DNA of 38,752 nt from assembly GCF_006345805.1 (NCBI RefSeq), contig NW_021835757.1, positions 1-38,752 of the forward strand, given 5' to 3'. The notes below the pieces were generated by a model. That model was not told the origin of the DNA, made no database searches, and saw only the letters and a list, made by a program, of their open reading frames with translations. Source of the stretch: Octopus sinensis. Taxonomy: Eukaryota. Below are positions 3,744 to 6,211 of the stretch, one piece after another. The position numbers and the translations under genes were made by a program. Each line of letters opens with the position of its first letter. Position 1 is the stretch's first letter.

Positions 3744-4183
3744 CAACCATATGTGCGAGACAGGGTGATCTCATATCAAGAGAAACAGCGCATAACCTTG
3801 CAGGTGGCGCCCAGTTAGAATTTTCTTCAGATCGAGTAGCCCATCCCGCTGAAAAGGTCCCTGAATAAGGGTTGTTTAAGGATGTTGAACGAAACACCCA
3901 TGTTTCCAAAGGCGAATTATTTAAACCCCAAAGAATTCCTCTCAACACATGGCTATGATGCTCACCCACTACTTCCGCTCGTGATCAGAGATGCACATAT
4001 TGTCAGCCACTAAGGGACATGCTCAACTGGTTATGGTTAAACAATTGACAAGCAAAACTGACAAGCAGAATATTTACTGTAGCTCATCTTTTATACCAGG
4101 ACAAAACAATGTACATGATAACACTGCCAATCAGTTAAGATCAGAAGCCATGAGAGTCACTATCTGGTACTGCATCAGGGCAT
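3744..4183. mobile_element. ~550-nt element, partial copy fused to a LINE 3' fragment
   Basis: Matches the family from caaccatatgtgcg to gcatcagggcat; directly joined to 3466-3743. Confidence 0.85.
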
Positions 4184-4204: not shown

Positions 4205-4281
<77 letters not shown>

Positions 4282-4745
4282 GAGTGAGAGAGCAGTTCAT
4301 GCCATCAAAGTGACACTGGGGTAAAATATACGAAGCCCAGTATACCCATCATGACTACCCGTCTGATAAGGGTACACTAGGCACATGCATCACAACCATA
4401 TGTGCGCAACAGGGTGATCTCATATCAAGATAAACAGCACATGACCATACAGGTGGGGCCCAGTTAGAAATTTCTTCAGGTTGAGTAGCCCATCCCGCTC
4501 AAAAGGTCCCTGAATAAGGGTTGTTTAAGGATGTTGAAAGAACCACCCATGTTTCCAGAGGTGAATTATTCAAACCCCAAGAATCCCTCTCAACACATGG
4601 CTATGATGCACCCCCACTACTTCTGCTCGTGGTCAGAGATGCACATATCGTCAGCCACTAAGGGACATGCTCAACTGGTTAAGGTCAAACAACTGACAAG
4701 CAAATCTGTGGTATTGGGCAGAATATTTGCTGTAGCCCATCTTTT
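4282..4745. mobile_element. ~550-nt element, partial copy fused to the GC-rich segment
   Basis: Matches the family up to gcccatctttt, then switches abruptly to unrelated GC-rich sequence. Confidence 0.85.
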
Positions 4746-6176
4746 CGGAGCCCGTCAATCCTCTGAAGCCCCTCTTCGCCATTGGGCTTCAGCCTCGCCA
4801 TGCATGATGGCTCATTTTTGTGCTGCACATCGGTGGTTAGGTGAGGAATGACGCCCTGGTACTACCTTGTCGCGGTAAGAGAGCTTGAGCCCCTCGAGCG
4901 GCGGGGGGCGCTCGATGCTTGTCCCTCCCGTAAGAGGGTGACCAAATGTACCGAAGCGCATGCTGGGTCTTAGGCATACGCGGGATCGAGATGCTGAGTG
5001 GGTCATCTCGAAGTAGCAAAAACCCCACCCCGCGGGTTGACCGGCCGGGGCTTCCTGCGGCCTGCGAACCGGCCACCTGGCGCCAGAGGCGAGTGAAGGT
5101 CCGTTGCCGAGATCCGTTAACGCGTTGAACGTCGGTAGGCCGTCTCAAGCTGCCCCAGTTGGCTTCGAATAGGGGGCGGTCGTCCGGAATCCGCTGAGGC
5201 GTCGAACCGGCAAGCGGCCCAGTTACCTGGCGGCCCCGGTGGCACCGTCCCACCTTAATACACCGGGCGTTGAGGCAAGTGCGTGTAAGGGCGAAGTGTA
5301 TTCGGGTTCACGTAAGCTCGGAGCGTGGCTACCTGGACGCGTGGCCTGTCCACAAAAGTCGGAGGTCCCGCAATTGTCCGTAGGTAGAACCTCACCATAC
5401 CCATAGTGGACGGGTGTTAATGTGAGGGTACGTGTTCTGCGATGCGCAGTAACCTCTGCAATAGACAGCCACCTCTTCACCACACCAATAATAGCCGCAC
5501 TTTGGGATGGTCAGATGGGTCCGGCAAGCGCGCACCCTCCGGCGCATGGTGGCACCGTCCACTTAAAACACCGAGCGTTCGGGTAAGGTTATGATCCGCG
5601 CATCGAGGGGACAAGCAGCCAGTCCCGGCGGATGGATTCACCCCCTGGTCGCGTGGCTTTGTCCACGAAAGTCGGGGCCCTGCATGATTCCTTGCTGGTC
5701 CGCTCGGGGACATGTAGAAAATCGGCGGTGGCGCTGCCCACCTAAATAACCGGAGCATCCCGGGAGGGGCAATCCTATTCCTAGGGTGAGTGGCACCGAC
5801 CACTATAACACACCGGCGTCGTGAGCCAGATGACCCCCGCCGCGGTGGACACGCTCTCAGTTCACTTAGGTGGGGAAGCTCTACTCCTCGGCGGGTGGCT
5901 GCCGTCTCCACCTTAATACACCGGCACCCCGGGTTCCCTCTCGTCTATGAATTCGGTTGCTGGGCGGGGGACTAGGTCCCGGGGAGGTGACTGCGGTCAC
6001 CGAACGTAGACGCCCTGGTGCGCGGCCATAAAAAAAATATCTCAAGGTCCCCCGCTGGGGTCTCTGCGGCGCTTGAGTGGGGTCTGCCTCGTAAGCGGCC
6101 TGCACACGGGAGTGGCCGGCGTCGAGAGAGCTTCCGACTTCGACCGACCCCTCTTGTGAGCCCCGCCTCCTGCCCC
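4746..6176. other. GC-rich, highly structured non-coding segment with repeated GTGGC-loop-CCAC motifs
   Basis: Sharp compositional contrast with the flanks, many local inverted repeats and seven related motifs; no credible protein in the six-frame track. Confidence 0.6.
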
Positions 6177-6211
6177 TTATTATCATTATTATTATTATTA
6201 TTATATTATTA

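Follow-up and report, generated by a model that had tools for sequence, protein, structure and literature searches.

The window, a 38,752-nt stretch of Octopus sinensis DNA (contig NW_021835757.1), contains a single GC-rich island (~4750-6177) in otherwise AT-rich animal DNA with many SINEs and microsatellites. The island is almost certainly a copy of a non-autonomous, SIDE-like passenger of R2, the retrotransposon specific for 28S, and it carries seven motifs that are predicted, with high confidence, to be compact H-type pseudoknots. Based on sequence comparisons, the motifs are likely to be multiplied, hinge-less copies of the protein-binding pseudoknot found at the R2 3′ terminus.

The assignment to an R2 passenger follows from the absence of an ORF, the target remnants at both ends, and the presence of an R2 ribozyme core and an R2 3′ end. 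A DNA search of the animal's own 2.72-Gb genome gave at least 46 family matches with 67-97% identity, most of them fragments, and the 16 matches to a tight form of the motif pattern all fell within family loci (reversed control, none). Full elements are ~1.66-1.79 kb long and form subfamilies that are 62-87% identical to one another. A complete member of ~1.66 kb (L017, 1095-2752) has a TAAGG remnant at its 5′ end and a 27-nt downstream target half at its 3′ end. R2 coding capacity is absent: the longest sense ATG ORF encodes 60 aa in the window piece and 92 aa in L017, and the best tblastn match of the passenger to R2 protein had an E value of 0.68. The copy in the window and the parts of it that flank the array are as follows.

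4747..6176, + strand: ORF-less R2 passenger, dispersed copy, 5′-complete and 3′-truncated (46 genome matches; start shared with a 1,785-nt contig of a probable RNA run; no R2 coding remnant)
4747..4748, + strand: GG left over from the upstream half of the R2 target in 28S, marking the 5′ junction (from the contig of run X3, L057 and L059)
4749..4857, + strand: leader peculiar to the subfamily, predicted to form the J1/2 loop of the ribozyme (among copies, column identity is 0.30)
4858..4952, + strand: predicted HDV-like R2 ribozyme (core common to autonomous R2s; from sequence and fold only)
5925..6176, + strand: conserved hairpin domains followed by the truncation point (homologues L002, L017, L038, L065 and L066)

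In the homologues a further ~280 nt lie past the truncation point and hold an eighth internal pseudoknot as well as the terminal pseudoknot-hinge-stem of R2; L002 runs ~260 nt beyond it, with two further motifs. The window copy ends in (TTA)n without the terminal module, and it is therefore a dead off-target cDNA, a 3′-truncated fragment outside the rDNA. In the assembly, none of the 11 long upstream halves of 28S leads into a member of the family; the source copy probably lies in the rDNA and is probably missing from the assembly. On its 5′ side the window copy adjoins a truncated 560-nt ATT-tailed repeat, of which the window holds four copies (two partial, 89-96% identity) at 1-550, 2047-2600, 3744-4180 and 4281-4746. 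A SINE is present in ~14 copies across the window.

At the 5′ junction, ACTCTCTTAA immediately precedes position 4747 in the contig of run X3, and TCTCTTAAGG is found at the 5′ end of the related subfamilies L057 and L059. The predicted ribozyme comprises P2 (4858-63/4947-52), P3 (4864-66/4874-76) closed by L3 (4867-73), P1′ (4877-85, with its partner in the upstream 28S), P4 (to 4939) and J4/2 (4940-46). This core is common to the passenger copies, the autonomous R2s L111, L112 and L115, and L165; P3 changes in pairs (ACC/GGT to GCC/GGC) and P2 pairs also change. P1′ is able to pair with the last 13 nt of the upstream 28S, placing the predicted cut at -13, and dispersed passenger copies carry only about 13 nt of 28S. 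Both a cut at -13, for some R2s, and long J1/2 loops are described in the accessible text on R2 ribozymes (PMC3774820). An Rfam search of the whole window gave no match, ribozyme and motifs included. Self-cleavage is predicted upstream of the motifs, in the ribozyme at 4858-4952, rather than within them.

The R2 SIDEs of Drosophila willistoni are described as ORF-less elements with a 5′ HDV-like ribozyme, an R2 3′ end and R2-site junctions (accessible parts of PMC3414825). The octopus passenger resembles them in all of these features and in having a centre unrelated to R2, and is about three times as long (1.66-1.79 kb against 529 bp, with a 197-bp centre). Unlike the SIDEs as described there, it has a conserved, structured centre with about eight extra pseudoknots, an A-clade helper, many dispersed fragments outside the rDNA, and several subfamilies of the divergence given above. 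Neither an octopus R2 passenger nor a pseudoknot array in an R2 passenger was found in the literature searched; the family may exist as an unnamed repeat.

Autonomous R2s of the same genome share the ends of the passenger. In L050 and L053 the common last 85-110 nt run into LSU rRNA at the R2 target, and an R2 reading frame lies upstream in L050. L111, a full-length element flanked by the two target halves, contains a frame of 1,311 aa, the product of which has three zinc fingers, Myb, RT and endonuclease, and its best solved relatives are the A-clade R2s 9nl2, 9dou and 9nl3. The passenger and this three-zinc-finger R2 have the ribozyme core and the last 85-110 nt in common; in a comparison of the family with 16 R2 loci, similarity did not extend beyond the 3′ terminus and ~30 nt of the ribozyme. 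The last 85 nt of L002, a region missing from the window copy, are 75-85% identical to the R2 3′ ends of L061, L063, L064, L111-L114 and L119. L112 opens with the same letters as R2-1_OVu, an autonomous R2 of Octopus vulgaris (as given in the accessible text of PMC13188248). The R2-1_OVu lineage, which matches the passenger in ribozyme core and 3′ end and differs from it in being protein-coding with a single terminal knot (L111, L112 and L113), is the probable helper.

Another ORF-less R2 passenger, 1.8 kb long and unrelated to the first, is intact in long 28S flanks (L165, 1691-3503; G000, C10, ~22948690-22950502). It has a ribozyme of its own, a single terminal pseudoknot and a stretch of ~120 nt that is duplicated internally, and related 3′ ends occur in L157, L160, L161 and L164.

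The original prediction had compared the array with the stacked pseudoknots of viral UTRs. Genome-dispersed fragments with random ends and inversions would suit an endogenous viral UTR, but this origin, which is exceedingly improbable, was rejected because the 28S R2 junctions at both ends contradict it, as do the R2 ribozyme and the R2 3′ end; a scan of viral contigs with the motif pattern gave no match. The analogy gives way to an array in a non-coding R2 passenger, with the R2 3′-terminal pseudoknot as its nearest counterpart. A scan of metagenomes gave 37 matches, all single copies and all two variants of one sequence, and hence no array. Rfam searches of seven loci returned nothing but LSU rRNA above threshold.

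In the whole window the motif pattern occurs seven times on the forward strand and not at all on the reverse strand. Of 2,000 dinucleotide shuffles of 4900-6180, 1,862 contained no motif and none contained more than three, so the seven motifs at their predicted positions are upheld. Stems 1 and 2 (S1 and S2) and the loops (L1 and L3) of the predicted pseudoknots are given below, with the fraction of homologue cells that are paired.

5238..5266, + strand: pseudoknot 1, type A (S1 5 bp, L1 2 nt, S2 CCG/CGG, A-rich L3); S1 52/55, S2 21/33
5334..5362, + strand: pseudoknot 2, type B, two registers; earlier register S1 52/65, S2 36/38; alternative S1 69/77, S2 50/52
5548..5574, + strand: pseudoknot 3, type A, paralogue of pseudoknot 1; S1 43/45, S2 23/27
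5646..5675, + strand: pseudoknot 4, type B, paralogue of pseudoknot 2; earlier register S1 51/65, S2 30/39; alternative S1 65/78, S2 49/52
5727..5753, + strand: pseudoknot 5, type A, S2 CTG/CRG; S1 46/50, S2 30/30; middle pair T-A 6, T-G 4
5789..5816, + strand: pseudoknot 6, type A, in register with the ScYLV frameshift pseudoknot; S1 47/50, S2 29/30
5894..5924, + strand: pseudoknot 7, type A; S1 39/40, S2 22/24

The five type A motifs consist of a 5-bp S1, a 2-nt L1, a 3-bp S2, 1-3 extruded bases and an A-rich loop of 8-9 nt. In homologues taken by alignment, without motif selection, the share of paired cells is 92-97% for S1 and 64, 85, 100, 97 and 92% for S2 (pseudoknots 1, 3, 5, 6 and 7, respectively); deleted or misaligned rows were skipped (L004 and L017 for pseudoknot 3, L099 for pseudoknot 1 and L008 for pseudoknot 4). 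The coupled changes of the outer pair and the pairing of the loop with downstream sequence are present as claimed, and covariation in homologues backs the H-type geometry. In a set of 33 instances selected by regular expression, which leaves out decayed, type B and terminal copies, the middle pair of S2 is CG in 19, UA in six and UG in six. The S2 covariation score of 0.210, a value inflated by kinship and by the selection of instances, was above all 500 shuffles; pair-type counts did not exceed shuffles. Counting against folding, the S1 helix has a probability of 0-0.19 in a nested-only (pseudoknot-free) ensemble; MFE folding of the whole element was uninformative. For the two type B variants, located at 5340 and 5652 in the original prediction, the GTGG/CCAC stem is possible, and so is a 6-bp stem starting 6 nt upstream; an 8-bp closing stem, with 86-90% of its cells paired, leaves the earlier register free.

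Mean column identity among homologues (18 of 21 aligned rows) is 0.77 in the motifs and 0.64 in the spacers, a gap reached by four of 686 mask shifts. The motifs are thus better conserved than the sequence between them, which together with the covariation supports a repeated functional RNA module. The spacers had been called dissimilar, which holds among the seven paralogous motifs but not among homologous genome copies, where they are conserved; one of them (5574-5651) has a column identity of 0.78, on par with the motifs. Alignment-based folding of nine stretches gives consensus hairpins in every one, with 1-6 doubly changed pairs each, so that the RNA appears structured throughout, with a stem after each knot. 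The segments 5238-5372 and 5548-5684 are an internal duplication (knot-spacer-knot) with 66% identity (E 1e-9), showing from sequence that the extra knots were gained at least partly in this way. A possible larger pseudoknot was seen in spacer 2 (5405-5510), with conserved GTGGACGGGTG upstream, conserved ACCAATTATAGCCGCACCC downstream and a variable insert between them.

The ends of dispersed fragments bear on folding as well. Of 32 fragment 5′ ends, 15 lie at the 3′ edge of a knot (25% expected, p=0.0055), or 10 with a stricter window (p=0.011), and among close copies the figure is seven of 15 (p=0.054); the windows are post hoc, among 12 tests. Since alignment bias would favour the 5′ edges of the knots, the pile-up is read as modest support for knot formation and for stalling of reverse transcriptases at the knots. 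At the 5′ edges, where an Xrn1 block would leave ends, there were three of 32 (19% expected), an indirect test that lends no support to the exonuclease blocking once proposed. Internal priming at the knots was considered and rejected, for lack of a clear enrichment: fragment 3′ ends lay 5-60 nt past knots in 23 of 36 cases (50% expected, p=0.06) and in nine of 18 close copies.

The nearest relative of the motifs is found at the R2 3′ end. Among 30 loci with the downstream target half (from 31 matches), 23 carry GTGGG-ACCR-CCCAC with an A-rich loop and then GG behind it, 20-35 nt upstream of the junction, and 22 of these 23 have a GAA hinge. The outer pair of this terminal stem covaries, being T-A in seven, A-T in six, C-G in two, T-G in two and unpaired in two of 19 distinct sequences. 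Of the seven loci that lack the motif, four are stray fragments of 28S, and the others comprise an empty site, the head of a passenger and a partial motif. When a covariance model derived solely from the internal motifs was run on 82 kb containing 14 R2-site loci, its eight best matches were terminal knots and a ninth terminal knot came at E=3; the model missed the terminal knot in five of the 14, including L111, L112 and L061, the lineage with the passenger's 3′ end. Intermediates exist: some internal copies in L002 carry the GA or AA loop typical of terminal knots, and CCG occurs in the terminal knot of L150. The two kinds differ in stem 2 (3-bp CCG/CGG in internal copies, CC/GG in terminal ones), and a GAAAG/GAAAAG-like hinge after stem 2 is present in none of the eight internal copies. 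In the loci examined, elements of this passenger family have about eight internal knots and a terminal one (~9), and L111-L113 and L165 have one each.

In avian and turtle A-clade R2s, the protein binds the pseudoknot-hinge-stem through ZnF3-2 and NTE-1, and stem 1 of the bound finch knot is GGUGG/CCACC (accessible text of PMC12180492 and PMC12222951). The octopus knots resemble these 3′UTRs in stem 1, the short loop, the 8-9-nt A/U-rich crossing loop and the stem that follows; the terminal octopus copy further shares with them the GAA(A)G hinge and its placement ahead of the 28S junction. Comparative evidence gives the octopus knots an H-type fold with a stem 1 of 5-7 bp and an A-rich crossing loop. 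In stem 2 the internal octopus copies pair CCG with CGG, while in the avian knot a loop GG pairs with downstream CC. The hinge carries sequence-specific contacts in the avian structures (PMC12180492), and the known A-clade R2s, as far as these sources describe them, have one knot per element in place of an array. Among the functions first suggested for the motifs, protein binding survives best in the light of these sequence comparisons.

A second likeness is to the P1-P2 frameshift pseudoknots of poleroviruses and enamoviruses, such as those of TuYV/BWYV and ScYLV (accessible parts of PMC3719023, PMC7618472 and bioRxiv 10.1101/2024.12.07.627321). Like the internal octopus knots, these have a 5-bp stem 1, a 2-nt loop starting with C, a CCG:CGG stem 2, one extruded base and an A-rich loop, and by analogy both probably form the same minor-groove triplex. 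Pseudoknot 6 (5789) matches ScYLV in register at 13 of the 16 residues named in the text of the ScYLV paper, and the equivalent of C8 is C in 28 of 33 copies. These matches, with the helices of 5 bp plus CCG:CGG (PMC3719023), would suit knots that hold the passenger on ribosomes near new R2 protein. This role is nevertheless very improbable, as the octopus knots, unlike the viral ones, are repeated and lie outside any ORF, none of the seven has a slippery heptamer within 22 nt upstream, and convergence in sequence would be expected of a minimal stable triplex fold. The translation enhancement originally suggested, or frameshifting, is unlikely, given a longest sense ATG ORF of 60 aa and no slippery site. 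The likeness is read as convergence on a minimal fold, with no common descent.

The family appears to be expressed. The element is covered at ~93% identity in all four probable RNA runs, from four studies (X9, X10, X14 and X19; the RNA label is guessed). Single contigs of 1,785, 1,688 and 1,639 nt span it in three of them and three shorter pieces cover it in the fourth; the contigs reach 283-316 nt past 6170. X9, X10 and X14 carry the same differences and the X10 contig starts exactly at 4747, which fits one transcribed master copy.

By analogy with the terminal knot, the function of the array is, with a roughly even chance, the multivalent capture of R2 protein in trans. Capture is proposed because an untranslated RNA must compete with coding RNA and because the second nick needs a second R2 subunit, lower protein giving fewer precise 5′ junctions (accessible text of PMC13486585). 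From known R2 biology, the source copy would be co-transcribed with 28S and then released by the ribozyme, and the terminal pseudoknot-hinge-stem would bind borrowed R2 protein and start target-primed reverse transcription. Upstream of this terminal module stand about eight pseudoknot-shaped motifs, each followed by a conserved stem. These would add sites for the ZnF3-2/NTE surface and raise avidity relative to coding R2 RNA, and with no hinge and no primer-pairing tail they would not permit internal starts that drop the terminal module. Each knot unfolded by the enzyme would release protein, a possible source of the second subunit that the second nick requires. The full scheme, in which about eight decoy knots load several R2 proteins, outcompete coding R2 and hand over the second subunit, is put forward tentatively.

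Two other explanations stay real rivals to protein capture, given the missing hinge, the single knot of L165 and the conserved spacers; L165, intact in 28S with one knot, also implies that an array is not required. The knots and hairpins might bind no R2 protein and instead compact and stabilise a 1.7-kb RNA that is neither capped nor translated, shielding it from nucleases and surveillance until an R2 protein reaches its 3′ end. Conservation and structure extend over the entire RNA, the hinge is absent from internal knots, a full-length single-variant contig is present in probable RNA runs, and a stable 5′ ribozyme fold is reported to guard R2 templates from 5′ decay (accessible text of PMC12203849). 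Such protection is rather unlikely, however, as the 5′ edges of the knots show no excess of fragment 5′ ends and the likeness of the repeats to the R2 terminal knot is left unexplained. Alternatively, template jumps onto R2 3′ ends, reported for R2 in vivo (accessible parts of PMC3414825), and duplications may have added knot-plus-stem modules that hinge loss made harmless. The internal duplication, the stem after each knot, as at the R2 3′ end, and other passengers without an array agree with growth of this kind, yet stems are kept by compensatory changes across the diverged subfamilies, and the internal copies share a stem 2 unlike the terminal one, which suggests common selection. Neutral growth is accordingly judged unlikely.

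Outside Alu/L1, how non-coding passengers win retrotransposon protein in trans is poorly known, and repeats of a knot that A-clade R2 protein grips would make competition for the protein approachable by removing single knots. A-clade R2 proteins are in use for transgene insertion with the template RNA supplied separately, and the precision of insertion is limited by how much protein is available for the second nick; design rules for such templates may be found in a 1.7-kb trans template that nature has maintained across diverged subfamilies. With covariation as part of the evidence, the comparison adds a mollusc to the birds and turtles in which the pseudoknot-hinge-stem is known, and it suggests a fold common to R2 passenger knots and polerovirus frameshift knots.

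Several other R2-site features of the genome were observed. Insertions at L136, L140, L152 and L153-L155 have no R2 protein match within 1.5 kb upstream, which suggests several more passenger families. L115 has four R2-type ribozyme heads within 9.5 kb (contig C9332), adjoined by a second R2 lineage with an RT of ~60% identity. A hairpin internal to the ORF of L111 was dropped as a candidate, not being conserved at the homologous place. The 28S of L131-L134 (C8750, C10266, C12603 and C12762) has diverged from the host type and probably belongs to another organism in the assembly. On the chromosome-scale contig C1, L061 is a scrambled rDNA block with two 5′-truncated R2 copies in tandem. The head of one subfamily of the pseudoknot-bearing passenger (L144/L095; G000, C6, ~40858850) opens with a duplicate of the downstream 28S half, an arrangement known from some R2 5′ junctions.
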